Of a stretch of DNA of 64,000 nt, positions 3,091 to 39,401 are shown one piece after another. The number at the start of each line of letters is the position of its first letter. Position 1 is the stretch's first letter. The stretch comes from Rhizobiaceae bacterium (GTDB lineage: Bacteria; Pseudomonadota; Alphaproteobacteria; Rhizobiales; Rhizobiaceae). Position numbers and translations under genes: made by a program. The notes under the pieces were generated by a model, which was given only the letters and a program-made list of their open reading frames with translations, made no database searches and was not told the origin of the DNA. The DNA lies in assembly GCA_026981655.1 (NCBI GenBank), contig JALSIJ010000131.1, positions 3,217 through 67,216 on the forward strand, given 5' to 3'.

Positions 3091-3696
3091 ATGGAAAAAT
3101 TCAACAAGTTGACCGGCGTTGCAGCCCCCCTGCCTATCATTAATGTTGATACGGATATGATTATTCCGAAAGACTATCTGAAAACAATTAAACGCACAGG
3201 TCTTGGCGAAGGCCTGTTTGCTGAAATGCGGTTTAATGAGGATGGGTCTGAGAACCCGGATTTCGTGCTTAATAAGCCAGCCTATCGCAAGGCGGAAATT
3301 CTGGTTGCCGGTGATAATTTTGGTTGTGGCTCCAGCCGTGAACATGCGCCGTGGGCGCTGCTTGATTTTGGCATTCGCTGCGTGATTTCAACCAGTTTTG
3401 CCGACATCTTTTATAATAATTGCTTCAAGAACGGTATTTTGCCGATTGTGGTTTCTGAAGATGAGTTGGAAAAACTGCTTGATGATGCAAGCCGTGGAGC
3501 GAATGCAACCTTGTCTGTTGATCTTGAGGCACAGGAAATCAAAGGCCCGGACGGGGGAACGATTTCATTTGATATTGATGAATTTAAGAAACATTGCCTG
3601 CTGAACGGGCTTGATGACATAGGGCTTACGATGGAAAAAGTTGCCAGCATTGATGCTTTTGAGGCCGAATTGGGCGACCGCCGCCCCTGGGTGTAA
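3091..3696 (+). CDS. leuD: 3-isopropylmalate dehydratase small subunit
   Basis: Carries the LeuD motif [18 protein letters not shown] place the start at the internal ATG at 3091 ([14 protein letters not shown]) rather than at the ORF-track start 3022. Confidence 0.93.
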
Positions 3697-26189: not shown

Positions 26190-26678
26190 TTAATGCCGGG
26201 AAAGGCGTTCCAACAGGTTTTTTAATTCAAGTTTCTCATCATTATTTAGCCCGCCATCAAAGTCCGGCTCGCATTTTTTCATATCCTGCTTGCACTCATC
26301 AAACAGTTCAATGCCAAAATCGGTGATGAATACCAGAACCCGGCGATTGTCGTTTTCGTCTTGCTTACGATGAACCAGCGCGCGGGAAACCATGCGGTCG
26401 ATGGTTTTCGACAGGGCGGAAAAACTCATCAAAACCTGATCGCACATGGAGCCTACCGCATGGCCCTCACCATCTGATAGCATGGACAGGATACGCCATT
26501 GCTCAACCGGTAACTTTCGGGATTTCAAGGTGTCGAGCAATCTGTTGTTTACGTGTTTATGCGCCCTTGCCAAAGCAAAGGCGAGGTCATCAGATTGGGC
26601 CAATTTGCTGCGGTCGGGCACCTGATTGTCTCCAGATATTCTAATGTGAATTTGCACGAATAGTTTGCAAATCAGCAA
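26190..26678 (-). CDS. MarR family transcriptional regulator
   Basis: About 155-162 aa. Has a winged-HTH pattern (LPVEQWRILSMLSDGEG...SALSKTIDRMVSRALVHRKQDENDNRRVLVFITDFG). There is no in-frame ATG near the 5' end, so the start is TTG 26678 or GTG 26657. Confidence 0.8.
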   Translation of the reverse strand: MLICKLFVQIHIRISGDNQVPDRSKLAQSDDLAFALARAHKHVNNRLLDTLKSRKLPVEQWRILSMLSDGEGHAVGSMCDQVLMSFSALSKTIDRMVSRALVHRKQDENDNRRVLVFITDFGIELFDECKQDMKKCEPDFDGGLNNDEKLELKNLLERLSRH

Positions 26679-26857
26679 TTTACTTTCCTGTTCAAATAAT
26701 CATGAATTTGATAATCGTCAACAGATTCCGTTGAGTGGGCCCCAATAAACACCTAAAATTTACATTGTGTAATTGCGAAATTCATCGCAGACTGATGCGG
26801 CTTGAGCATAACAAAAAACCGCCGGGCGACTATATTACGGGAGATATATGCGCATAT

Positions 26858-27943
26858 ATGAGGCGACCAACCAGCTCAATTTCTTCAAGGCGTTCAGACC
26901 TGCTTAGCGTTGGATTGTTTATTCCAACCAGTGGTGCCGCTGGTATTTGGGGGCCGTCCTGCCGGGCCTGCGCGGAAATTGCTTCGGCTGAAATTAATCA
27001 GGCCGGCGGAATTAATGGCCGTGAAGTGGTTTTAAAAATATTTGACGCAGGCGATACGCCGGCAATGGTTGCGGGCGCGGCCGAGGATTGTTTTTTCGAC
27101 GGTGAGATTGATGCAATTGTCGGCATGCATACCAGCGATGTTCGTGAGGCGTTGGCAGGGGCCATTGGTAGTAAACTGCCTTATGTTTACACGCCGCTTT
27201 ATGAGGGCGGCGAGCGCACGCCCGGGGTTTTTTGCATTGGAGAAACACCTGCCATGCAATTGCTGCCGGCGGCCAGTGGGCTTTCCGAGCGTTATAAACT
27301 CAAGCGCTGGTATCTGGTTGGAAATGATTATATCTGGCCGCGCGCCAGCAATGCGGTTTTCCGTAGAAATCTTGCTACCACCGGCGGCACGATCTGTGGT
27401 GAGAAATATCTGCCATTTGGTACGACCGATTTTGGTGATCTTTTGGATGACATTGCCGAAAGCAAGGCCGATGCGGTTTTGGTGTCGCTGGTGGGGAGCG
27501 ATACAATTCAATTCAACAAACAATTTGGCCGCTCGAAAATCGTGCAGAAAATATTGCGGCTATCCTGTGCGATCGAGGAAAATGTTCTTTTAGGCATTGG
27601 GTCTGATTATAGCGATGGGCTGTTTGCGGTTTCGGGCTATTTCAGTGACATCAACACGGCGAAAAACAATTCATTCAAGGAACGCTATCACACGCGATAT
27701 GGTGCGCCCGGGCCGCAGCTTAATTCCATCGGTCAGTCGATCTATGAAGGTATGCATTTTTTGAAGGCGCTTTCGGTTGAAAGTGAAACCACCGATTGGC
27801 GACAGGCAGATCAGAATATTGCCTATAATGGGACGCGAGATGCGGTGTTTTCCGCAAAGCAGGGCATGAACTCGACCATATTTCTAGCCGAGGCACATGG
27901 GCACAATCTGAAGGTCGTCGAAAGTTATCCGCTTAGCCGTTAG
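26858..27943 (+). CDS. AmiC-like cytoplasmic amide-binding sensor (type 1 periplasmic-binding-protein fold, no signal peptide)
   Basis: Blocks recalled from Pseudomonas AmiC are present: YTPLYEGGE against YPTPYEGFE, and VGNDYIWPRASN against IGSDYIYPRESN, with ADAVLVSLVGSD. The N-terminus (MRRPTSSISSRRSD) has no hydrophobic signal. Start chosen at the ATG at 26858. Confidence 0.75.
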   Translation: MRRPTSSISSRRSDLLSVGLFIPTSGAAGIWGPSCRACAEIASAEINQAGGINGREVVLKIFDAGDTPAMVAGAAEDCFFDGEIDAIVGMHTSDVREALAGAIGSKLPYVYTPLYEGGERTPGVFCIGETPAMQLLPAASGLSERYKLKRWYLVGNDYIWPRASNAVFRRNLATTGGTICGEKYLPFGTTDFGDLLDDIAESKADAVLVSLVGSDTIQFNKQFGRSKIVQKILRLSCAIEENVLLGIGSDYSDGLFAVSGYFSDINTAKNNSFKERYHTRYGAPGPQLNSIGQSIYEGMHFLKALSVESETTDWRQADQNIAYNGTRDAVFSAKQGMNSTIFLAEAHGHNLKVVESYPLSR

Positions 27944-28172: not shown

Positions 28173-29756
28173 ATGGATATTTTTATTTCGCTCATTGTGA
28201 TTGTCGTTGTTGTGGCAATCGGTATTGCATTCTTGCAACGGTTTTATCGCAAGGCAACACGGGAACGGGCTTTAATCCGCACCGGTGCGGGTGGTGAATG
28301 CGTGGTACTTGATGGCGGCTTTCTGGCCCTGCCGTTTTTGCACCGGGTTGAGCAGATCAACATGCGAACCATGCGTTTGCAGATTCGCCGAATGGGCGAG
28401 AAATCTCTGATGAGCGAAGACCGGTTGCGACTGGATGCGGAAGTTGAGTTTTATCTGCGCGTTGAACCAACAATGGAAGGAGTGGCAACGGCGGCTCAAT
28501 CACTTGGTGCGCGCTCGTTAAACCCGGATGAGTTGGGCAATTTGTTCAATGGCCGGTTTGTGGATGCCATGCAATCTGTTGTGGCGACCAAGACGATGGA
28601 TCAGCTGCATGAGGACCGGGGCGGTTTTGTCAAGGAAGTTCGAGCAGCCCTTGCCGATGGAATGAAATCAAACGGATTGCGGCTGGAATCCGTATCGCTC
28701 ACTCACCTTGATCAGGCGTCATTTGCCTCGCTGGATGAAAATAATGCGTTCAATGCAGTGGGTATGCGCCGCCTTGCGGAAGTGGTTTCTTCAAACAGGA
28801 AAAAGCGCGCTGAGATTGAAGCCGACGCTGATGTTTCCGTCCGTCAGGTTCAGTTAGACAGTTTGAAACGTAAATTGCTGATTGAGGAAGAGCAGAAGAA
28901 AGCAGAAATTCAACAGCTGCAAACAATAGAGTCTGCCAAGGCAAATTCGGCGGCTGCAACCGAGCTTTCCCGGCAAAATGCCCAGATGGAAGCGGATCAG
29001 GGTAAGATCGGGGCTGATCTCGAAACCCGCAGACGCGAAATTGAACGCGATAAGGAATTGCGCCAACATGAGGTGCAGGCATTACTCGCGGCTGAATCTG
29101 CCAAGATTGAAAGTCAGATTGCCCTGGCAAAAAAGCGGGCGGAAGAAAATGCTATTATTGCTGAAACAGAATTGTCGCGGGAATCGGTTATTGCGGCACA
29201 GGAAAAAATTCAGTCAGAAAAAGAACGCCTGGTTGCTGAGCGTGAGTTGAATGCAGCCCTGATTAAAACCCGCCAGCAAAGCCAGACCACCGAAGAACGC
29301 ACTAAATCTGAGGTGAAAACACTGCTTGATACGGTGCAGGCTGAGGCAAAGGCCTCTGATTTACGCGCCGCTGCCAAGCGCTCAGAACTGGCTGCGGAAG
29401 CAGAAGGCAAGGCTGCGTTGATAAAGGCAGAAAATCAACTGGCCCCGGAAATCATTGCCATGAAGCTCGATATGCATAAGATGGATAGATTGCCGGAATT
29501 GGCTGAAAAAATGATGAAGCCGCTGGAAAAAATCGACTCCATCCGTATCAATCAGATTTCGGGCCTTGGCATTGGCGAGGGCGGGCAGGCGCAGGCCGGG
29601 CCAATTGATGGCGTTGTGGATGGTGCATTAAAACTTGCACTGCAAATGCCGGCCATGAAAAAAATCGGCAAGTCTGTCGGTGTAAATTTTGATTTTGATG
29701 AAAAAGTGGAGAAGAAAAAAAGGCCAACTAAACCGAGTGGAAAATCCAAAAAATAA
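28173..29756 (+). CDS. Flotillin-like SPFH/band-7 protein (YqiK/FloT type)
   Basis: 527 aa from the ATG at 28173. Has an N-terminal transmembrane helix (MDIFISLIVIVVVVAIGIAFL), an SPFH-like region, a coiled coil of about 250 aa rich in E, A, K and Q, and a Lys-rich tail. Confidence 0.85.
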   Translation: MDIFISLIVIVVVVAIGIAFLQRFYRKATRERALIRTGAGGECVVLDGGFLALPFLHRVEQINMRTMRLQIRRMGEKSLMSEDRLRLDAEVEFYLRVEPTMEGVATAAQSLGARSLNPDELGNLFNGRFVDAMQSVVATKTMDQLHEDRGGFVKEVRAALADGMKSNGLRLESVSLTHLDQASFASLDENNAFNAVGMRRLAEVVSSNRKKRAEIEADADVSVRQVQLDSLKRKLLIEEEQKKAEIQQLQTIESAKANSAAATELSRQNAQMEADQGKIGADLETRRREIERDKELRQHEVQALLAAESAKIESQIALAKKRAEENAIIAETELSRESVIAAQEKIQSEKERLVAERELNAALIKTRQQSQTTEERTKSEVKTLLDTVQAEAKASDLRAAAKRSELAAEAEGKAALIKAENQLAPEIIAMKLDMHKMDRLPELAEKMMKPLEKIDSIRINQISGLGIGEGGQAQAGPIDGVVDGALKLALQMPAMKKIGKSVGVNFDFDEKVEKKKRPTKPSGKSKK

Positions 29757-29775
29757 AACCTCAAGGGAGAAGAAA

Positions 29776-30996
29776 ATGAAAATTGATCGCAGAAAATTTG
29801 TGGCAGGAACAGCCGCCGCCGGCACTATGGCATTCCTGCCCAAAATGGCCATCGCGGGCGAGACCATCAAGGTAGGTTCTATCCTTGATACCTCCGGTAT
29901 TTTTGACCTTTATGGCAAGCCAATGGACAAGGCCGTGACACTGGCCATTGAAGAATTAAATGCAGCCGGTGGTATTGCCGGTCGGAAACTTGAAAAAGTC
30001 GCCTATGACACTCAATCCAATATGGCGCTCTATACGCAGTTTGCTCAAAAGCTAACCCGTCAGGACAAGGTGGATGTGGTGCATGGGGGCATTCTTTCCG
30101 CTTCCCGCGAAGCTATTCGCCCAACTTTGCGCAAGTCGAAAACCCTGTATTTCTACAATGTTCAATATGAGGGTGGCGTTTGCGACCGCAATATTTTCTG
30201 CACCGGAGTAACACCTGCCCAGCAGGCGGAAGTTCTGGTGCCCTATGCGATGGAAAAATGGGGCAAGAAAATCTACATTCTGGCCGCTGATTATAATTAT
30301 GGCCAGATCACCGCCAAGTGGATTGAGCACTATGCCGGTAAAGCCGGTGGCTCCGTTGTAAAGACGGATTTCTTCCCGCTTGATGTGGCTGATTTTGGAT
30401 CAACTATTGCCAAGATTCAGGAAGCTGCACCAGATATGATCATGTCGGCGCTGGTTGGTGGTGCGCATCTTTCATTTTATCGCCAGTGGGCGGCTGCCGG
30501 AATGAACAAGAAAATTCCTATGGCTTCCACCACGCTTGGTGCTGGTAATGAGCAGGTTGTTTTGACCAAGGAAGAGGGTGACGGCATTTTGCTGGCCTAT
30601 TCCTTCTCGAAGGAACTTGATCGGCCTGAAAACAAGGTGTTTTTGGATAAGTGGCAAAAACGCTTTGGTTCGACCGACGACATTCACGAGCTTGCGGTTG
30701 CGACCTATCAGGGTATGCATTTGTGGGGTGCTGGCGCTAACAAAGCCGGCTCAGTGGAGCGTGACAAAGTGGTGGAAGCGCTGGAATCAGGTGTTAGTAT
30801 TATCGGCCCTAGCGGCAAGATTACCGTTGACCCCAAAACCCATCATGTGGTGACCGATGTGCATATTGTTGAGGTTGGCGATCAAAAAATGAACGTGGTC
30901 AAAAGCTATGATCAGCGCCAACCGGTTGATACCCAGGCAGTGTGCGATTTAAGCGCCAATCCGGGTGATACAACTCAATATGAAATCAAGATTTAG
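29776..30996 (+). CDS. Amide/urea-type ABC transporter substrate-binding protein (AmiC/UrtA/FmdD-related) with a Tat signal
   Basis: 406 aa from the ATG at 29776 with a GGGAGA Shine-Dalgarno. Has a twin-arginine signal (MKIDRRKFVAGTAAAGTMAFLP). The mature part has IKVGSILDTSG...AIEELNAAGGIAGRKL and YFYNVQYEGG. Confidence 0.85.
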   Translation: MKIDRRKFVAGTAAAGTMAFLPKMAIAGETIKVGSILDTSGIFDLYGKPMDKAVTLAIEELNAAGGIAGRKLEKVAYDTQSNMALYTQFAQKLTRQDKVDVVHGGILSASREAIRPTLRKSKTLYFYNVQYEGGVCDRNIFCTGVTPAQQAEVLVPYAMEKWGKKIYILAADYNYGQITAKWIEHYAGKAGGSVVKTDFFPLDVADFGSTIAKIQEAAPDMIMSALVGGAHLSFYRQWAAAGMNKKIPMASTTLGAGNEQVVLTKEEGDGILLAYSFSKELDRPENKVFLDKWQKRFGSTDDIHELAVATYQGMHLWGAGANKAGSVERDKVVEALESGVSIIGPSGKITVDPKTHHVVTDVHIVEVGDQKMNVVKSYDQRQPVDTQAVCDLSANPGDTTQYEIKI

Positions 30997-31074: not shown

Positions 31075-31941
31075 ATGGATTATGCCGCGGTTGTGATCGT
31101 GGAGGTGTTTTACGGTATCTCTGTACTGGTTTTGATCAGTGCGGGGCTGGCTGTTGTATTCGGTATGATGCGGGTGATTAATCTTGCGCATGGGGAATTT
31201 ATAACGTTGGGCGGTTATGCAGCGATTACCGCCCATTCGCTGGGTGTGCCGATATTTATCTCGACCTTGATTGTTGCACCGATTGTGGTGGCGATATTCG
31301 GGCTGGTCGTAGAACGGCTGATTGTACGTTTTCTTTATGGGCGGTTGATCAATACCATGCTCGCCACATGGGGGTTGAGCCTGTTGATGATTGGTGGAAT
31401 GACCATGATTTTTGGCAATACGACAACGGGTATTCCAACCCCGATTTCAGGCTTTACGCTTGGGCGCTATCAGATGAGCGGCTATAATCTGTTTGTCATT
31501 TTCATGGCCATTGTTACGGTAATCATAATTTACGGGGTTTTAAAAACCACGCGCGCCGGGCTTATCGCGCGCGGTGCTATGCAGAACCCTGAAATGGCCA
31601 ATGCATTTGGCTATAATACCTCACGCATTTATATGCTGACCTTTACCGCAGGCGCTGCCCTTTCCGGGCTTGCCGGTGGCGTTATGGCACCATTGGTTGG
31701 GCTTAACCCTGCCTCGGGTGCCAATTATATTGCAAAGGCTTTTATTACGGTGATTTCCGGCGGCACCTCTGTGGTTTCCGGGCTTCTATCCAGCGCCACC
31801 TTGTTTGGCTCGGTTTCGCAGATTGTCACCTTTATTTCCACATCGGTGGTGGGCGAAATTGCGCTGCTGATTGCGGCGGTCATTTTGCTTCGATTGCTGC
31901 CAACTGGCATAACCGGTCGGTTCTTGAAGGGTCGGGTGTAA
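31075..31941 (+). CDS. Branched-chain amino acid/urea-type ABC permease (LivH/UrtB-like)
   Basis: 288-aa polytopic ORF with INLAHGEF near the N-terminus, typical of the LivH family. Confidence 0.88.
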   Translation: MDYAAVVIVEVFYGISVLVLISAGLAVVFGMMRVINLAHGEFITLGGYAAITAHSLGVPIFISTLIVAPIVVAIFGLVVERLIVRFLYGRLINTMLATWGLSLLMIGGMTMIFGNTTTGIPTPISGFTLGRYQMSGYNLFVIFMAIVTVIIIYGVLKTTRAGLIARGAMQNPEMANAFGYNTSRIYMLTFTAGAALSGLAGGVMAPLVGLNPASGANYIAKAFITVISGGTSVVSGLLSSATLFGSVSQIVTFISTSVVGEIALLIAAVILLRLLPTGITGRFLKGRV

Positions 31942-31942
31942 C

Positions 31943-32995
31943 GTGGGTGGTTTGAAAGAAATTGCGCTCACCATAATCGTGGGACTGTTGTTGATGGCTC
32001 TGCTGCCATTGGGTGTAGATACCTTCACCCTGACCGTGCTTTGTATTTATGCCCTGCTGGGTCTCTCCCTTGGTTTCATCTGGGGGTTTGGCGGCATATT
32101 GTGTTTTGGGCAGGCAGCCTTTTTCGGGCTTGGGGCCTATGCCTATGCGATTGCGGCGATAAATTTCGGTACGCCCTGGGCGCCGTTTTTTATTGCCATT
32201 ATATTCCCGGCGCTTATTGCAGCAGTCTTTGGCGGCATGTTGTTTTTCGGTCGGCTGAACGATGTTTATCTTGCTGTTCTGACACTGGTATTTACGCTGA
32301 TCCTGTACAAGTTCATGAATGTGACAGCGGGTGAAAACTACATTATCGGCAAGGCTCGGCTTGGTGGCTATAATGGCATACCCGGGTTTGAAACCCTGTC
32401 GCTGCCCTGGGACCCTTCTGAATATATTTATGGCGATAGCCTGTTTTATTTCTCGCTCAGCTTGCTTTTGCTGGTCTTTCTGGGGCTGCGCTGGTTGCTC
32501 AAAAGCCCGTTTGGCCGGGTGATGATCGGGGTGCGTGAAAATGAGCTGCGGGCCGAATTGATGGGTTATGATGTTCGCCTGATCAAAACTGCTGTGTTCG
32601 CCATTGGTGGCGGTGTTGCAGGTCTTGCGGGTTGCCTTTACGCAAATTGGGCAGAGATTGTTACGCCAAACCTGTTTTCGCTTGGCCAATCGGCCGAGGT
32701 GATTATTTGGGTTATCGTCGGTGGTGCCGGAACCCTGTTTGGGCCCATTTTGGGGGCGGCGATTATGGGCTATATGAAATTCCTTTTGGGCCAGCAAAGC
32801 CTGATTGATAACACGCTGGTGATGGGGGCTGTGCTGGTTCTGGCGGTGCTGCTTTTGCCGCGCGGAATATTCCCTGTTATCGCTGATCGGTTTACCCGCA
32901 AAACCGGTCGCGAGCGCACCACTAGAAGCAGATCTTCGCGAAAACGCCCGACCAGAAAGCGTCATCGCAGAAGGGAGGGTTCCAATGAGCAATAA
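31943..32995 (+). CDS. Branched-chain amino acid/urea-type ABC permease (LivM/UrtC-like) with an Arg/Lys-rich C-terminal tail
   Basis: 350 aa with a GTG start 1 nt after the previous stop. Polytopic. Ends in RFTRKTGRERTTRSRSSRKRPTRKRHRRREGSNEQ. Confidence 0.85.
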   Translation: MGGLKEIALTIIVGLLLMALLPLGVDTFTLTVLCIYALLGLSLGFIWGFGGILCFGQAAFFGLGAYAYAIAAINFGTPWAPFFIAIIFPALIAAVFGGMLFFGRLNDVYLAVLTLVFTLILYKFMNVTAGENYIIGKARLGGYNGIPGFETLSLPWDPSEYIYGDSLFYFSLSLLLLVFLGLRWLLKSPFGRVMIGVRENELRAELMGYDVRLIKTAVFAIGGGVAGLAGCLYANWAEIVTPNLFSLGQSAEVIIWVIVGGAGTLFGPILGAAIMGYMKFLLGQQSLIDNTLVMGAVLVLAVLLLPRGIFPVIADRFTRKTGRERTTRSRSSRKRPTRKRHRRREGSNEQ

Positions 32996-33704
32996 TATTG
33001 TGGTTGAAGCCCGTGATCTAACGGTTCGTTTTGACGGTGTGGTGGCGCTGGACAATGTTAATTTGAAATTACAGCGCAATGAATTGCGCTGTCTTATCGG
33101 GCCAAACGGGGCTGGCAAAAGCACCTTTTTTAAATGCCTGGCGGGCATGCAGCTGCCAACCAGCGGCGAAATGATTGTCGAGGGTGAGGCCACCACCGGT
33201 TATGATCCGTTTCGGGTTGCACGGCTTGGCATCGGCATCAAGACGCAGGTGCCTAGTGTGATGGACGGGCTTTCGGTTCATGAAAATATCTGGCTGGCTG
33301 CACGGCGTACCCAGAGCACGCGCAAGGCCAACGGAATTGTTGATGATATTCTGGGACGGCTGAAACTGGGCGATCTTGCGCGGCAGGATGTTTCCACACT
33401 TGCCCACGGACAACGCCAGATTGTTGAACTGGGTATCGTGCTTGCGGGCGACCCCTGGCTGGTTTTGCTGGATGAACCAGCGGCGGGTCTGACCGGTGAT
33501 GAGGTGGAGCGCATGGTCAATGTAATTAAGGAAATCAACGATTATGCAACGCTGATCGTGGTTGAACACGATATGCATTTTATTCGGCAAATTGCCAAAA
33601 TGGTCACCGTATTCCATCAGGGCCGGGTGCTGATCGAGGAAGATGTGGACACGGTCTTAAGCGATCCGATTGTCCGCGATGTTTATCTGGGTAAACGCCG
33701 ATGA
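32985..33704 (+). CDS. ABC transporter ATP-binding protein (LivG/UrtD-like)
   Basis: 239 aa. Has Walker A GPNGAGKST and Walker B LLDEPAAGL. A GGGAGGG Shine-Dalgarno lies upstream. Confidence 0.9.
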   Translation: MSNNIVVEARDLTVRFDGVVALDNVNLKLQRNELRCLIGPNGAGKSTFFKCLAGMQLPTSGEMIVEGEATTGYDPFRVARLGIGIKTQVPSVMDGLSVHENIWLAARRTQSTRKANGIVDDILGRLKLGDLARQDVSTLAHGQRQIVELGIVLAGDPWLVLLDEPAAGLTGDEVERMVNVIKEINDYATLIVVEHDMHFIRQIAKMVTVFHQGRVLIEEDVDTVLSDPIVRDVYLGKRR

Positions 33705-36079
33705 ATGAAATCGACAAGCAGATGATATTGGAAGTTTCGGCATTGCGCAGTGGCTATGGGGCAATACCGGTGCTTCATGGGGCAGAGCTTGCTGTAGCCG
33801 AAGGCTCAATCATTGGTATTCTTGGCCATAATGGCATGGGAAAATCCACCCTGTTAAAAACCATTATGGGCTATTTGCCGGTGACCAGCGGGCAGGTGAA
33901 GTTTGATGGTGAAAATATCACGACGCTGCCGGTGCATGAACGCGCGCGGCTTGGCATTGGGTATGTTCCGCAGGATCGGGGAATTTTTACCCAGTTGAGC
34001 GCTATTGATAATCTGCGGTTTGCCTGGAGTGAGGATACTTCAGAATATCCGCTTGATGAGGCGATCGAACAGACATTAGTTGAATTTCCACGGCTTAAAC
34101 CCCTGCTTACCCGATCCGCTGGCGCACTGAGTGGCGGAGAGCAACAAATTCTGGCCATTGCCCGTTGTTTGATTGCAGAACCCTATTTGCTTTTGCTGGA
34201 TGAGCCGACCGAGGGCATTCAGCCTTCTATCATTGACGAGATTGCAGAGACGTTGAACTCCTTGCGGGACAATCGCGGGCTGAGCGTTGTGGTGGTTGAG
34301 CAAAATCTGGATTTTCTGACCGATCTTTGCGACCGGCTGGTGATTTTTGAGCGCGGCGAAGTGAAGGTTGATCTTGCGACCAATGAAACCGATTCCGCCA
34401 GCCTGATTGATGAATTTGTCGGCCTTGGTGCAGGTCGCATGACAAAGGGCGCTCAGTCTCCAACCAGCACTGGCTCAACTGCTCAAAGCAAACATTTATC
34501 GGCGCAAGAGCGGCCACAAATTTCAACCGAAATCCCGGCTACGACTGCCGGTAAGGAGGCTTATATGACGGTAAGACGCCCAACGCTGCAACAGATGCGC
34601 GACGTATCATCGGGCCTTGGCATGACCATGTCAGATGCCGAACTTGGCGAATATATGGAATTGATGGAGGCCAATTTTCAATCTTACGATTTGATTGATT
34701 CAATGCCGGATGAATTGCCCAAGGTTAAATATCCGCGCACGCCGGGCCATCGCCCCTCAACGGCTGAAAATCCGATGAACGCCTGGTATGTGAAATCTGA
34801 AATACGCGGTGCCGTGTCCGGCCCGCTGGAAGGGCGAACAATTGTGTTGAAGGACAATGTCTGCCTTGCAGGCGTACCGATGATGAATGGCTCCTCGACG
34901 CTTGAGGGCTATACGCCGGATATTGATGCAACCATTGTTACCCGTATTCTCGATGCCGGTGGCACCATTGTCGGCAAGGCCCATTGTGAACATTTTTGCC
35001 TTTCCGGTGGTAGCCACACCAATTCAACCGGCCCGGTGCATAATCCCTACAAGGTGGGTTATTCAGCAGGCGGGTCGTCTTCCGGTTCCGGCGCGCTGGT
35101 GGGCGCTGGTGAAGTTGATATGGCAATCGGCGGTGATCAGGGCGGGTCTATCCGCATTCCAGCATCATTTTGCGGGTGTTATGGGATGAAGCCAACCCAC
35201 GGGCTGGTGCCCTATACCGGTATCATGCCGATTGAACCGACGATTGATCATACCGGACCGATTACTCAAAATGTGTCGGATAACGCCCTGTTTTTGGAAG
35301 TGCTTGCCGGTGATGACGGGCTTGATCCGCGCCAATATGCACCCAGAACCGACCGCTACACTGAAGCGCTTGGGCGCGGTGTTGGTTCGATGCGCATTGG
35401 TGTTGTGCGCGAGGGCTTTGGCTTTGAAAACAGTGAAGCAGATGTGGACCAGAAAGTGCGCGATGCGGCAGCGAGCTTTGCCAAACTGGGTGCGGTGGTT
35501 GAAGATGTATCCATCCCGATGCATTTGCAGGGGGCGGCGATCTGGACCCCGATTGCGCTTGAGGGTCTGACCGATACTATGATGCACGGCAATGGTTTCG
35601 CCACCGGCTGGAAAGGGCTTTATGTCACCAGCTTGCTGGATGCCCATTCCAATTGGCGCAACCGGGCTGATGAGTTATCAAAGTCGCTGAAAATTTCCAT
35701 GTTTGTTGGCGAATATATGCAAAAGCATTATCGGGGCCATTATTATGCCAAGGCGCAAAATTTAAGCCGTCGGCTCCGGGCAGCTTATGATGATCTGCTG
35801 GCACGCTATGATCTGCTGTTAATGCCGACCCTGCCGATGAAGGCAACGCCTATTCCGCCGGCTGATGCGTCTATTTCCTTGACGGTGCAACGGGCCTTTG
35901 AAATGGTTGGCAATACCGCCCCCTTTGATGCGACCGGCCATCCGGCGATGAGCATACCTTGCGGCATGAGCCAGGGTCTACCCGTTGGTATGATGTTGAT
36001 TGGCAAACATTTCAACGAGAGCACGATTTACCGGGCGGCCCACGCATTCGAGCAATCCGGCGACTGGAAAGATATGTAA
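33701..36079 (+). CDS. In-frame fusion of a LivF/UrtE-like ABC ATPase (about residues 1-245) and an amidase-signature amidase (about residues 289-792)
   Basis: A single 792-aa ORF. The N-terminal part has [18 protein letters not shown] and [10 protein letters not shown] linker of about 43 aa is rich in S, T, Q and A. The amidase part has [11 protein letters not shown] and [16 protein letters not shown]. An internal AAGGAGG lies at 34553-34559, 5 nt before the in-frame ATG at 34565. Confidence 0.8.
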
Positions 36080-37842
36080 TGTCCTATTCAACCATTGATG
36101 ATTTATCCAAGCCGATAACATCGCTGGATGGTTCGGCAAATAAAGCGAGTGGTGATATGGCCGATTTAAAACCACAAGATGGTTCCTATGTGCGGGGTGA
36201 TACCTCCAACCCCTTATGGCGCAAAACTATTTTTCAGGTGTTGAAAGATACGGCATCTGAATTTGGCCACCGCGATGCAGCTATATTCTGCCAGCATGAT
36301 GTGCGCTGGACATGGAACCAGCTTTTAAGCAAATGCGATGATCTGGCATCCGGACTTTTGGCGCTGGGGTTAAAACCCGGCGATCGGGTGGGCATCTGGT
36401 CGCCTAATCGACCGGAATGGCTGTTGATACAATTTGCCACCGCGCGGGTGGGGATTATTCTGGTCAATATCAACCCGGCCTACCGCACCTATGAGCTTGA
36501 ATATGCGCTGAATAAATCCGGCTGCAAGGCTTTGGTTTTAGCGGAGAATTTTAAAACCAGCGACTATGTGGCGATGTTGCGCGAACTTGCGTCGGAAATA
36601 GATAATTGCGAGCCGGGCGCGCTTAATTCTACAAAACTGCCTGCGTTAAAATCGGCCATCGTCACTGGCGATAATGCGCCAAATGGTTTTTTTGCCTTTG
36701 ATGATGTGATGAAAATGGCTGGCCCGGCGCACCGAATGCGGCTTGATGAAATGTCGGCTGGTCTTGATCCCGATGATCCGATCAACATTCAGTTCACATC
36801 CGGCACCACCGGCTCGCCCAAGGGGGCAACGCTGACCCATTATAATATCGTCAATAATGCGCGGTTTGTGGTTGGTACGATGGGTTTTTCTGAAAATGAT
36901 AAATTATGCATTCCGGTGCCGCTTTATCATTGTTTCGGCATGGTTATGGGCACGCTTGGTTGCGCCACCACCGGGGCGGCGATGGTGTTTCCGGCAGAGG
37001 CGTTTGATCCTATTTCGACATTAAAGGCCATCAGCCAAGAGCGCTGCACGGCGCTTTACGGGGTGCCGACGATGTTTGTTGCCATGTTGGAATCGCCGGA
37101 AGTTGCACAAAGTGATTTCTCCTCGTTGCGCACCGGCTGTATGGCGGGCGCGCCTTGCCCGATTGAAATTATGAAACGGGTGGTTGGCGAAATGAACATG
37201 AAAGAGGTTACCATCGCCTATGGCATGACCGAGACCAGCCCGGTTTCGTTTCAATGCCATGCGGATGATCCGCTGGACAAGCGGGTTTCCACCGTTGGCC
37301 GCATTCACCCGCATGTGGAGGTGAAGGCGATTGATGAAAACGGCAAGATCGTGCCAGTGGGCGAACCGGGCGAATTGTGCACCCGTGGCTATAGCGTTAT
37401 GCGCGGTTATTGGGATGATGATGAGCGCACGAATGAGAGCATTGATCAATCCGGCTGGATGCATACGGGCGATCTGGCGACGATTGATGAAGATGGTTAT
37501 TGCGCCATTGTTGGCCGGGTAAAGGATATGCTTATTCGGGGCGGTGAAAATATCTATCCGCGGGAAGTGGAGGAGTTTTTGTTTACTCATCCAAAGGTGG
37601 CCGAAGTGCAGGTGTTCGGGGTGCCGGATGAAAAATATGGCGAAGAGGTTTGCGCGTGGATTGTGCTTAAGCCTGATACCAGCGCCGATGAGGCGGAGAT
37701 CCGCGAGTTTTGCAAGGGTAAAATTGCTCATTATAAGGTGCCGCGCTATGTGCGATTCAAGTCAGAATTGCCAATGACAGTGACCGGCAAACCGCAGAAA
37801 TTTATTATGCAAAATGCGATGATTGAGGAATTGGCGAGTTAA
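36079..37842 (+). CDS. AMP-dependent acyl-CoA synthetase/ligase
   Basis: 587 aa from the ATG at 36079, which overlaps the amidase stop (TAATG). Has [35 protein letters not shown] and a GKPQK-type C-terminus. Confidence 0.9.
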
Positions 37843-37916: not shown

Positions 37917-39401
37917 ATGAATTATACGCTTGGAATTGACATTGGCACTTTTGAATCCAAGGGTGTGCTGGTCGATGTAAATGGCAAAATTATTGCCTCG
38001 GCATCGCAACCGCATAAAATGCTGGTGCCACAACCTGGTTGGGCCGAACACCGGGCCGATGAGGATTGGTGGCATGATTTTTGCCAAATTTCCCAAAGCC
38101 TGCTGGCGCAATCCGGTATTGATTCTACTGATATAAAATGCGTTTCCTGCAGCGCCATTGGCCCCTGCATGTTGCCGGTTGATGGTGATGGCAAACCGCT
38201 CATGAATGCGGTGCTTTATGGGGTGGATGGCCGTGCGGCGCTTGAGATTGAGGAATTGACCTCGCGAATCGGCGAAGCGCGTATTTTGGAAAAATGCGGC
38301 AATGCACTGACCTCGCAATCGGTTGGTCCGAAGATTTTATGGCTTAAGCGGAACCGGCCGGAGCTTTATCAGAAAACCGCAAAATTCCTCACCTCGTCGT
38401 CCTATCTGGTGTTCAAACTAACCGGTGAAATGGTAATTGATCATCACACGGCCGCAGGCTTCAGTCCGCTTTATGATGCGGATAAACAGGCGTGGACCGA
38501 TGAACTTTCAGACGACATTATTCCGCTCGACAAGCTGCCAAAGCTGATGTGGACGACAGAAATTTCCGGGTATATTACTGATGCTGCATCTATTGAAACC
38601 GGGCTGGCCATTGGTACGCCGGTGACGACCGGTACGATTGATGCGGCTTCCGAAGCAATCAGTGTCGGGTTGCGCGCCAAGGGCGATATGATGATGATGT
38701 ATGGATCGACCATATTCATCATTACGCTCACTGAAAACCGGGTGCGTGACGGGCGCTTGTGGTATGCGCCCTGGCTTTATCCCGGTGGCCATGCCTCGAT
38801 GGCGGGGCTTGCGACCAGCGGCACGCTGACCCATTGGTTCCGTGATCAATTTGCCCGCGAGCTTACCAAGGAGGAGGCGTTTCCGGTGCTTGCACAAGAG
38901 GCGGAGGTCTCGCCGCCCGGTGCCAAAGGCCTGTTGCTTTTGCCATATTTTTCCGGTGAGCGCACGCCCATTCACGATACCAATGCATCGGGTACATTTT
39001 TCGGGCTTAACCTCACCCATACGCGCGGAGATATGTATCGCGCTCTGTTGGAAGGCATTGCCTATGGCACCTGCCATGTGCTTCGAACCTACAAGCAGGT
39101 TGGTGAAACCCCATTGCGGCTTTTAGCCGTTGGTGGTGGTACAAAAAACCGGCTTTGGCTACAGGCGACCTCTGATATTGGCGGGTTGGATCAAATTATC
39201 TGCGAAAACACGTTTGGTGCATCTTTCGGTAATGCATTTTTGGCCGCATGTGCCATTGGCGCGGCAAAACCAGAAGACATAGACCGGTGGAACCCGGTTG
39301 CCTCCACCATTAGGGCTAAGGCAAATCCTGCCTACGAAAAGCAATATAAACTGTTCCGCAGGCTTTATGAGCAGACCAAGGATATTTCTGCGGAGTTATA
39401 A
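37917..39401 (+). CDS. FGGY-family carbohydrate kinase
   Basis: 494 aa. Has LGIDIGTFESKGVL at the N-terminus, and GGGTKNRLWLQ and FGNAFLAA near the C-terminus. Confidence 0.88.
   Translation: MNYTLGIDIGTFESKGVLVDVNGKIIASASQPHKMLVPQPGWAEHRADEDWWHDFCQISQSLLAQSGIDSTDIKCVSCSAIGPCMLPVDGDGKPLMNAVLYGVDGRAALEIEELTSRIGEARILEKCGNALTSQSVGPKILWLKRNRPELYQKTAKFLTSSSYLVFKLTGEMVIDHHTAAGFSPLYDADKQAWTDELSDDIIPLDKLPKLMWTTEISGYITDAASIETGLAIGTPVTTGTIDAASEAISVGLRAKGDMMMMYGSTIFIITLTENRVRDGRLWYAPWLYPGGHASMAGLATSGTLTHWFRDQFARELTKEEAFPVLAQEAEVSPPGAKGLLLLPYFSGERTPIHDTNASGTFFGLNLTHTRGDMYRALLEGIAYGTCHVLRTYKQVGETPLRLLAVGGGTKNRLWLQATSDIGGLDQIICENTFGASFGNAFLAACAIGAAKPEDIDRWNPVASTIRAKANPAYEKQYKLFRRLYEQTKDISAEL

Follow-up and report, generated by a model that had tools for sequence, protein, structure and literature searches.

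We report a gene in which a UrtE/LivF-like ATPase of an ABC transporter and an amidase-signature enzyme are joined in a single reading frame. The gene lies at 33701-36079 of a 64,000-nucleotide stretch of DNA from a Rhizobiaceae bacterium (assembly GCA_026981655.1, contig JALSIJ010000131.1, forward-strand positions 3,217 to 67,216), the whole of which we refer to as the window. Our reading, to which we give a probability of roughly 0.72, is that this is a genuine and selectively kept fusion within the operon of a Urt/Liv-type (HAAT-family) amide importer, and that the locus makes a fused ATPase-amidase and, very probably, a free amidase as well. The initial annotation of the window had listed this pair of products as one of three options. 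Comparative evidence supports it, in that the joined frame and the internal ribosome-binding site with its ATG are both kept clade-wide, and it is from this conservation that we infer the two products. ABC importers are usually seen as feeding a pool of diffusing enzymes, and here the first catabolic enzyme would be tied to the motor subunit itself. We did not find the fusion described in the literature on amidase-ABC fusions, on links of UrtE or flotillin to amidases, or on transport metabolons, where the nearest paper deals with an SBP_bac_5/FmdA system that contains no fusion. This agrees with the earlier remark that such an arrangement is not known to have been described for amide importers.

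One frame, two domains and a linker

A scan for open reading frames returned one uninterrupted frame of 792 codons, encoding a protein of 792 residues, as the initial annotation had proposed. Every motif it had quoted for the two halves is found in the translation, and both Pfam domains match, ABC_tran (PF00005) at residues 25-170 (E 2e-31) and Amidase (PF01425) at residues 367-776 (E 1e-95). The ATPase half contains the Walker A motif, the Q-loop, the LSGGQ signature, the Walker B motif and the VVVEQN switch, all of them invariant or nearly so in an alignment of homologues. When scored against TIGR03410, the equivalog model for UrtE, residues 10-234 reach 246.7 bits, under the cut-off of 285.8, and we regard this half as UrtE/LivF-like in function and not as a urea-transporter equivalog. 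The linker that follows had been estimated at about 43 residues rich in Ser, Thr, Gln and Ala; it has this composition and a length of 44 residues (245-288), and beyond it the amidase forms an extra C-terminal domain of 504 residues on the ATPase subunit. In an AlphaFold2 model made from a 30-sequence alignment, the confidence (pLDDT) is about 90 in the ATPase half and below 30 in the linker. The gene is directly abutted by its neighbours, as its start ATG overlaps the stop codon of the preceding UrtD-like ATPase gene (ATGA) and the downstream acyl-CoA ligase gene starts at an ATG that overlaps the stop of the fusion (TAATG).

The amidase half is, as judged by profile and structure matches, a complete enzyme of the PRK07235/NF005565 type with an intact Ser-cisSer-Lys triad. 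It scores 823.6 bits against NF005565 (cut-off 545), with residues 289-791 aligned to positions 1-505 of a profile of 506, so that profile position 1 falls on Met289. The structure of RhAmidase from Rhodococcus sp. N-771 (PDB 3A1K/3A1I) is matched over residues 13-497 of 3A1K (E 9e-142), and K384, S459 and S483, which are invariant across 30 homologues, line up with K96, S171 and S195 of RhAmidase, the numbering being identical after subtraction of the 288-residue offset. The GGSSSGS signature is present, and the form GGSS(S/G)GS is common to the two enzymes. RhAmidase is described, in a passage of PMC11732141 citing Ohtaki et al. (2010), as a dimer of 107 kDa whose N-terminal helical domain is unique. 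The window amidase may share such an N-terminal helical region: the alignment begins at 3A1K residue 13 and AlphaFold2 places helices at residues 296-334, in a part of the model that is of low confidence. The two enzymes differ in their setting: RhAmidase is a free-standing cytosolic dimer whose gene is found beside nitrile hydratase genes, whereas the window amidase is covalently joined to an ABC ATPase, and its coding sequence is part of a transporter operon.

A single clade and an open linker frame

The fusion is not confined to the window. A search of 5.8 billion proteins listed at least 120 clusters matched with full coverage, at 65-98% identity and with lengths of 762-866 residues, all of which have both PF00005 and PF01425. 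Where these homologues have a database name at all it is "amidase", a label that on a protein of 790 residues hides the ATPase, and the operon would otherwise seem to be without its second ATPase. A second, independent assembly from this genus has the same 792-residue frame (98% identity), another from the genus has the fusion at 84%, and within the family it recurs in two more genera at 70%. It is also present on finished plasmids of cultured Sulfitobacter alexandrii, Sulfitobacter sp. THAF37 and Pseudosulfitobacter, where it is likewise annotated as amidase; cultured carriers such as S. alexandrii, with the plasmid of strain AM1-D1, make the predictions presented here testable, and Salinarimonas rosea, Zhengella mangrovi and Denitrobaculum tricleocarpae are further cultured carriers. 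The occurrence is patchy (5 out of 61 related genomes), and the carriers belong to Rhizobiales, Rhodospirillales and Rhodobacterales, with one gammaproteobacterial and one betaproteobacterial metagenome-assembled genome, a range that points to horizontal spread of the fusion. One fused homologue (P0050) has a Gly/Pro-rich, unalignable stretch in place of the end of the ATPase domain, suggestive of either two frameshifts or faulty assembly.

We fetched orthologous loci as DNA and sorted them by the arrangement of ATPase and amidase. A metagenome scan contributed about 9 useful loci, most of what it returned being relatives with the ATPase alone. The fused, in-frame class holds 32 rows including one duplicate of the window, which leaves 31 distinct loci. 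The two genes are adjacent and in the same frame with one or more stops between them in 9 loci, and adjacent in different frames in 11. The remaining class, with an amidase lacking an upstream ATPase, holds 34 loci plus 4 that are truncated by the end of a contig; here the order is often MarR, cytoplasmic binding protein, amidase, substrate-binding protein, permeases and ATPases (Burkholderiales, Bradyrhizobium). In a maximum-likelihood tree of the amidase domain all 30 of the 30 fused loci, together with one contig-truncated locus, form a single clade (SH-aLRT 99), inside which the amidase domains are about 62-80% identical, and the neighbours of this clade are adjacent split operons, for example that of Rhizobium rhizogenes. 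The best 150 matches in a library clustered at 50% identity (1.84 billion proteins) include one full-length ABC-plus-amidase protein. Because the fused loci are monophyletic and just one such protein stands among these 150 matches, we conclude from the comparison that two adjacent genes were fused a single time, and long ago. No independent ABC-amidase fusion was found among the long matches of the representative search, which are unrelated chimeras. Three amidases of the same subfamily (P0123, P0126 and P0146) have OB-fold, HsdM methylase and Myb/SANT N-termini, respectively, and probably stem from chimeric assembly or from eukaryotic gene models.

The linker gives an indication of how the two genes were joined. 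In the split relatives the ATPase ends 2-4 residues past a conserved EFVG motif, and a spacer of 10-100 nt precedes the amidase start. In the fused clade the EFVG motif continues directly into a linker of 22-109 codons, and as it runs on where the split relatives stop, we read the linker as the old intergenic spacer, now translated and expanded. A stop codon between the orthologous genes, the presence of which the initial annotation had proposed as a check, is found in the sister lineages and never in the fused clade. The linkers of the clade are rich in Ala, Pro, Ser and Thr and cannot be aligned between members; the 119 fused proteins have 45 distinct linker lengths, every length change being a multiple of three. 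Stops in the linkers of 30 DNA loci number zero in frame 0 over 1651 codons, as against 18 in frame +1 and 12 in frame +2. Among the split relatives, ATPase and amidase genes share a frame in 9 out of 20 loci and do not in the other 11. Two Rhizobium rhizogenes strains (L019 and L038) have spacers of 78 and 77 nt, which place the two genes in the same frame and in different frames, respectively, and we take this difference as a natural control that reflects neutral drift of the frame where the genes are unfused. Selection thus keeps the linker frame open: as frame 0 is free of stops despite the varied lengths, and the split relatives have no frame preference, it is the covalent product that matters.

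These observations also bear on the two remaining options of the initial annotation, a recent loss of the stop codon and a sequencing artefact. The window does come from a fragmented assembly of 273 contigs, where an assembly or sequencing error could have joined two genes, or a stop codon could have been lost very recently and with effectively neutral consequences in this genome alone. We nevertheless discard both options, the chance of either being close to nil. An artefact is contradicted by the two other same-genus assemblies with the same frame and by at least 120 independent clusters from many sources, finished Sulfitobacter plasmids among them, and a recent loss by the single deep clade of fused loci, by the divergence of their amidases, and by linkers that are scrambled in sequence and varied in length but always in frame.

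The internal ribosome-binding site

Within the linker coding sequence a perfect AAGGAGG precedes the in-frame ATG at 34565 by 5 nt, exactly where the initial annotation had placed it, and this ATG is codon 289. We expressed the strength of a Shine-Dalgarno (SD) sequence as its pairing energy to the anti-SD sequence, in kcal/mol. The window motif pairs with -11.1 kcal/mol, which is the strongest value of all in-frame positions in the gene. AAGGAGG occurs only 2 times in the 64-kb window, where 5.1 occurrences are expected from shuffles, and as the word is rare, its match at exactly this spot does not simply reflect frequent occurrence. The other copy is found at 38868-38874, within an FGGY kinase gene (37917-39401).

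Both the start codon and the SD have been kept across the clade. Met289 is invariant in 119 of 119 motif-bearing fused proteins and in 31 of 31 fused DNA loci, and it is at the equivalent position that the free orthologues begin, with ATG, GTG or TTG. An SD-equivalent motif is kept in 28 out of the 31 fused loci. The residues encoded just upstream of the internal ATG vary (KE, RE, TE, ME, SE, QE, GG, QG, ER and NR), and despite these changes a GGAG, GAGG, AGGA or GGGG persists 5-11 nt from the ATG. The mean SD pairing at the internal ATG of the fused loci is -8.0 kcal/mol, compared with -7.5 to -9.1 kcal/mol at the true starts of the split and free orthologues (p = 0.79), -2.7 kcal/mol at other in-frame positions of the same genes, -1.6 kcal/mol in the rest of the linker and -2.7 kcal/mol at other in-frame ATGs; the difference from the three backgrounds has p from 1e-16 to 1e-19, but these p-values, like those given next, treat related sequences as independent and are overstated, and the scrambled linker serves as the control.

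The sequence around the start is unusual in further respects. At positions -7 to -2 the rare codon AGG makes up 12 of 16 Arg codons, as against 3.3% elsewhere (odds ratio 88, p 1e-14), and at positions +1 to +6 the rare AGA makes up 16 of 47 Arg codons, as against 1.2% elsewhere (odds ratio 42, p 7e-17). The mRNA from -20 to +20 has a predicted fold of -6.4 kcal/mol, compared with -10.5 kcal/mol for the gene background (p 6e-8). SD, codon choice and weak structure are, taken together, what one would regard as the hallmarks of a working initiation region. As the adjoining linker is scrambled, there has been ample time for the SD and the ATG to decay, and their conservation shows that selection keeps the internal SD, the ATG and the initiation-region features.

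Beside the overstated p-values, some points weigh against our interpretation. About 3 of the 31 fused loci have a weak SD of -3.1 to -3.5 kcal/mol, and roughly 12-16% of the clade, the "IGNAM" type, have this weak form. Ribosomes elongating through the linker could occlude the site for initiation de novo. On the protein side, AlphaFold2 models the amidase half poorly and is uninformative on contacts between the domains.

A reading that takes up the weak sites is that only the 87-kDa fusion is made, and that the SD-like motif and the methionine are kept for other reasons, for example a ribosome pause that serves the folding of the ATPase, or a structural role of Met289. Intragenic SD-like motifs are generally selected against (PMC5100845), and one that has been retained could therefore have a role other than initiation. 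We regard this reading as rather unlikely, though it deserves some weight. Met289 has no known structural role, since both the free orthologues and the NF005565 profile begin there, and it is invariant in the fusions while the free enzymes tolerate GTG and TTG. The motif furthermore sits at canonical spacing with a strength equal to that of true starts, and A-rich rare codons and weak mRNA structure past the ATG are features of initiation and not of a pause.

It could also be argued that the fusion is cut after synthesis. The linker is long, disordered and rich in Pro, Ala, Ser and Thr, and linkers of this kind are often accessible to proteases; if cellular proteases cut it, the working species would be a separate ATPase and a separate amidase, and the fusion would do no more than enforce their synthesis at a ratio of 1:1. 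This appears improbable to us, and clearly more so than a fusion that is the sole product, for cutting leaves the conserved SD, ATG and initiation-region features unexplained, the unalignable linker has no conserved cleavage motif, and the split relatives already co-express the two proteins via translational coupling. We therefore favor the reading in which the fused gene has retained a working start for a free amidase.

Two minor observations concern the region upstream of this start. A scan of the + strand from 33000 to 34565 gave no sigma-70-like match for an internal promoter, such a scan being weak for Alphaproteobacteria. A perfect 5-bp GC hairpin, CCGGCTACGACTGCCGG, at 34535-34551 ends one base 5′ of the internal SD. 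The 98%-identical relative has it too, and because more distant ones lack it, it probably lies outside the conserved design.

The proposed amide importer operon and its predicted products

The genes around the fusion form an operon with the order flotillin, substrate-binding protein, two permeases, ATPase, fusion and acyl-CoA ligase (Table 1), and this order is found in nearly every fused locus with enough flanking DNA. The flotillin leads the operon in every locus of the fused clade with enough upstream DNA (including L009-L017 and L176-L188) and is absent from all split relatives that were compared. Of the 27 fused loci with sufficient sequence past the fusion, 26 continue with a ligase of at least 51% identity and the last one (L097) has a CoA-ligase match of 44%, whereas no counterpart above 30% identity was found in the split relatives compared. 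Since flotillin and close ligase are found in the fused clade and not in the split relatives, it seems that three changes, namely fusion, flotillin and coupled CoA ligase, travel together. In several fused loci, a gene of the isochorismatase family follows the ligase.

We considered urea transport as the function of the operon and rejected it. All five components score under the Urt equivalog cut-offs, and the operon contains an amidase and a CoA ligase and not a urease. As every subunit falls under its cut-off, the transporter is best seen as an amide-type paralogue and not a urea transporter. Urt-like clusters beside amidase genes have been noted before as probable amide importers (PMC3098086, Haft and colleagues; PMC13209695). 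The layout of UrtABCDE and FmdDEF, and of the amide-linked Urt-like systems (HAAT, LivFGHMJ type), is the same as in the window, with five components of the same domain families, including two different permeases and two different ATPases. In the known systems, as in the sister lineages, ATPase and amidase are separate proteins, whereas in the window they are fused and the components score under the UrtA-E cut-offs.

We propose that the ancestral operon had a livF/urtE-like ATPase gene and, 10-100 nt further on, a separate amidase gene equipped with a ribosome-binding site, and that a single ancestor lost the stop codon of the ATPase gene, the spacer coming to be translated as a disordered linker. 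The first product would be a polypeptide of about 87 kDa, that is, one of the importer's two ATPase subunits with an amide hydrolase on a flexible tether, and the second, very probably, a free amidase of about 55 kDa from the retained SD and ATG at 34553-34567. Binding protein and permeases would import an amide. Given that no component reaches the cut-off of its Urt model, the substrate is likely an aliphatic or aromatic carboxamide of small to medium size and not urea. The tethered Ser-cisSer-Lys amidase would then cleave the amide at the cytoplasmic face to ammonia and a carboxylic acid, and the translationally coupled acyl-CoA ligase would activate the acid. In this scheme ribosomes presumably initiate at the internal site, and the tether presumably improves the capture of imported amide; a channelling from uptake to metabolism is plausible.

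HAAT-family Liv/Urt importers have two different ATPase subunits, and each transporter would therefore have one tethered amidase. By analogy with the dimeric RhAmidase, the free amidase could be the second protomer of a dimeric enzyme, or it could make up a cytosolic pool. The flotillin and the coupled ligase of the clade suggest a membrane-bound assembly that leads from amide to acyl-CoA. Going one step further, we speculate that the internal start solves a problem of stoichiometry, with free amidase pairing with the single tethered one into an asymmetric dimer docked on the transporter, and that this dimer, together with flotillin and ligase, forms a membrane-anchored amide-to-acyl-CoA assembly from which no intermediates are released. 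We hold this extended scheme to be doubtful, at something like one chance in five; if true, it would amount to vectorial metabolism by an ABC importer. Regardless of this, the fusion, which is natural, old and widespread, lends itself to tests of whether closeness of transport and catabolism pays off, and the visible selection on both the frame and the inherited start makes it a model for fused genes that encode two proteoforms.

In ClpB, IF2 and CheA an in-frame internal start lets one gene yield two proteoforms. Genome-wide cases of such starts have been collected (bioRxiv 10.1101/520783). The window gene has in common with them an SD and ATG inside the open reading frame, the conservation of both among orthologues, and the prediction of a full-length and an N-terminally shortened protein. 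It differs in that their short form is a truncated protein, whereas here the predicted short form is a whole enzyme, with a start inherited from a separate gene.

In PCAT-type ABC exporters a C39 peptidase is fused to the transporter. There, too, an ABC transporter is covalently linked to an enzyme whose substrate it transports, but PCATs are exporters with the enzyme on the membrane half, whereas the window encodes an importer with the enzyme on the soluble ATPase subunit. NrtC and CmpC of the cyanobacterial nitrate and bicarbonate importers likewise have a large C-terminal domain on one subunit of a heterodimeric ATPase pair (PMC13287603), and C-terminal accessory domains are also found in MalK, MetN and other ABC ATPases. 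The accessory domains of NrtC, CmpC, MalK and MetN are ligand-binding and regulatory, in contrast to the window's complete enzyme with its intact triad and its own internal start. The amidase domain may have a regulatory side-role besides catalysis.

Table 1. Features of the fused gene and its operon, in window coordinates.
Feature	Position	Strand	Basis and remarks
MarR-type regulator gene, divergent	26190-26678	-	Homologue at the same place in fused loci is MarR (annotation/Pfam)
AmiC-like cytoplasmic binding protein	26735-27943	+	NCBIfam UrtA-like 164 bits, far below cut-off; start codon uncertain
Flotillin (SPFH/Band_7 + Flot), first gene of the transporter operon	28173-29756	+	PF01145 + PF15975
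Periplasmic substrate-binding protein, urea/amide family	29773-30996	+	Peripla_BP_5/6; TIGR03669 355.7 bits, under 494.8 cut-off
UrtB/LivH-like permease	31075-31941	+	PF02653; TIGR03622/03409 under cut-offs
UrtC/LivM-like permease	31943-32995	+	PF02653; TIGR03727/03408 under cut-offs
UrtD/LivG-like ATPase	32985-33704	+	PF00005; TIGR03411 228.9 bits, under 304.1 cut-off
Fused gene, UrtE-like ATPase-linker-amidase	33701-36079	+	Single 792-codon open reading frame, stop-free, 792 residues
UrtE/LivF-like nucleotide-binding domain, residues 1-244	33701-34432	+	TIGR03410, AlphaFold2, gene ends of split relatives
Disordered linker, residues 245-288 (44 residues)	34433-34564	+	pLDDT <30; unalignable; putative former intergenic spacer
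Internal Shine-Dalgarno AAGGAGG	34553-34559	+	Anti-SD pairing; kept among fused loci
Internal in-frame ATG, codon 289 (Met289)	34565-34567	+	Start codon of free-standing orthologues
Amidase-signature enzyme, PRK07235/RhAmidase type, residues 289-792	34565-36079	+	NF005565; PDB 3A1K
Acyl-CoA ligase (AMP-binding)	36079-37842	+	PF00501 + PF13193; NF009233 875 bits, cut-off 832

The structures closest to the periplasmic binding protein are the uncharacterised receptor 8TG1, UrtA proteins and AmiC. The protein begins with a twin-arginine-like signal (MKIDRRKFVAG...).

Upstream of the operon lies a second, AmiC-like binding protein, which has no evident signal peptide and is likely, by its similarity to AmiC, an amide sensor. 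No AmiR/ANTAR-type gene was found among the open reading frames listed for the upstream region, nor among the genes typed by Pfam in related loci. The amiEBCRS operon of Pseudomonas aeruginosa and operons of the MeAmi type (bioRxiv 10.1101/2024.02.22.581678) likewise combine an amidase, uptake genes and a cytoplasmic AmiC-like protein. They differ in having an amidase of the nitrilase or FmdA type, an ANTAR partner, an SBP_bac_5 transporter (MeAmi) and no fusion, while the regulator in the window is of the MarR type. The AmiC-like gene stands upstream of the operon in many fused loci, often paired with the divergent MarR gene, and the same pair is found upstream of free-amidase operons in Burkholderiales and Bradyrhizobium.

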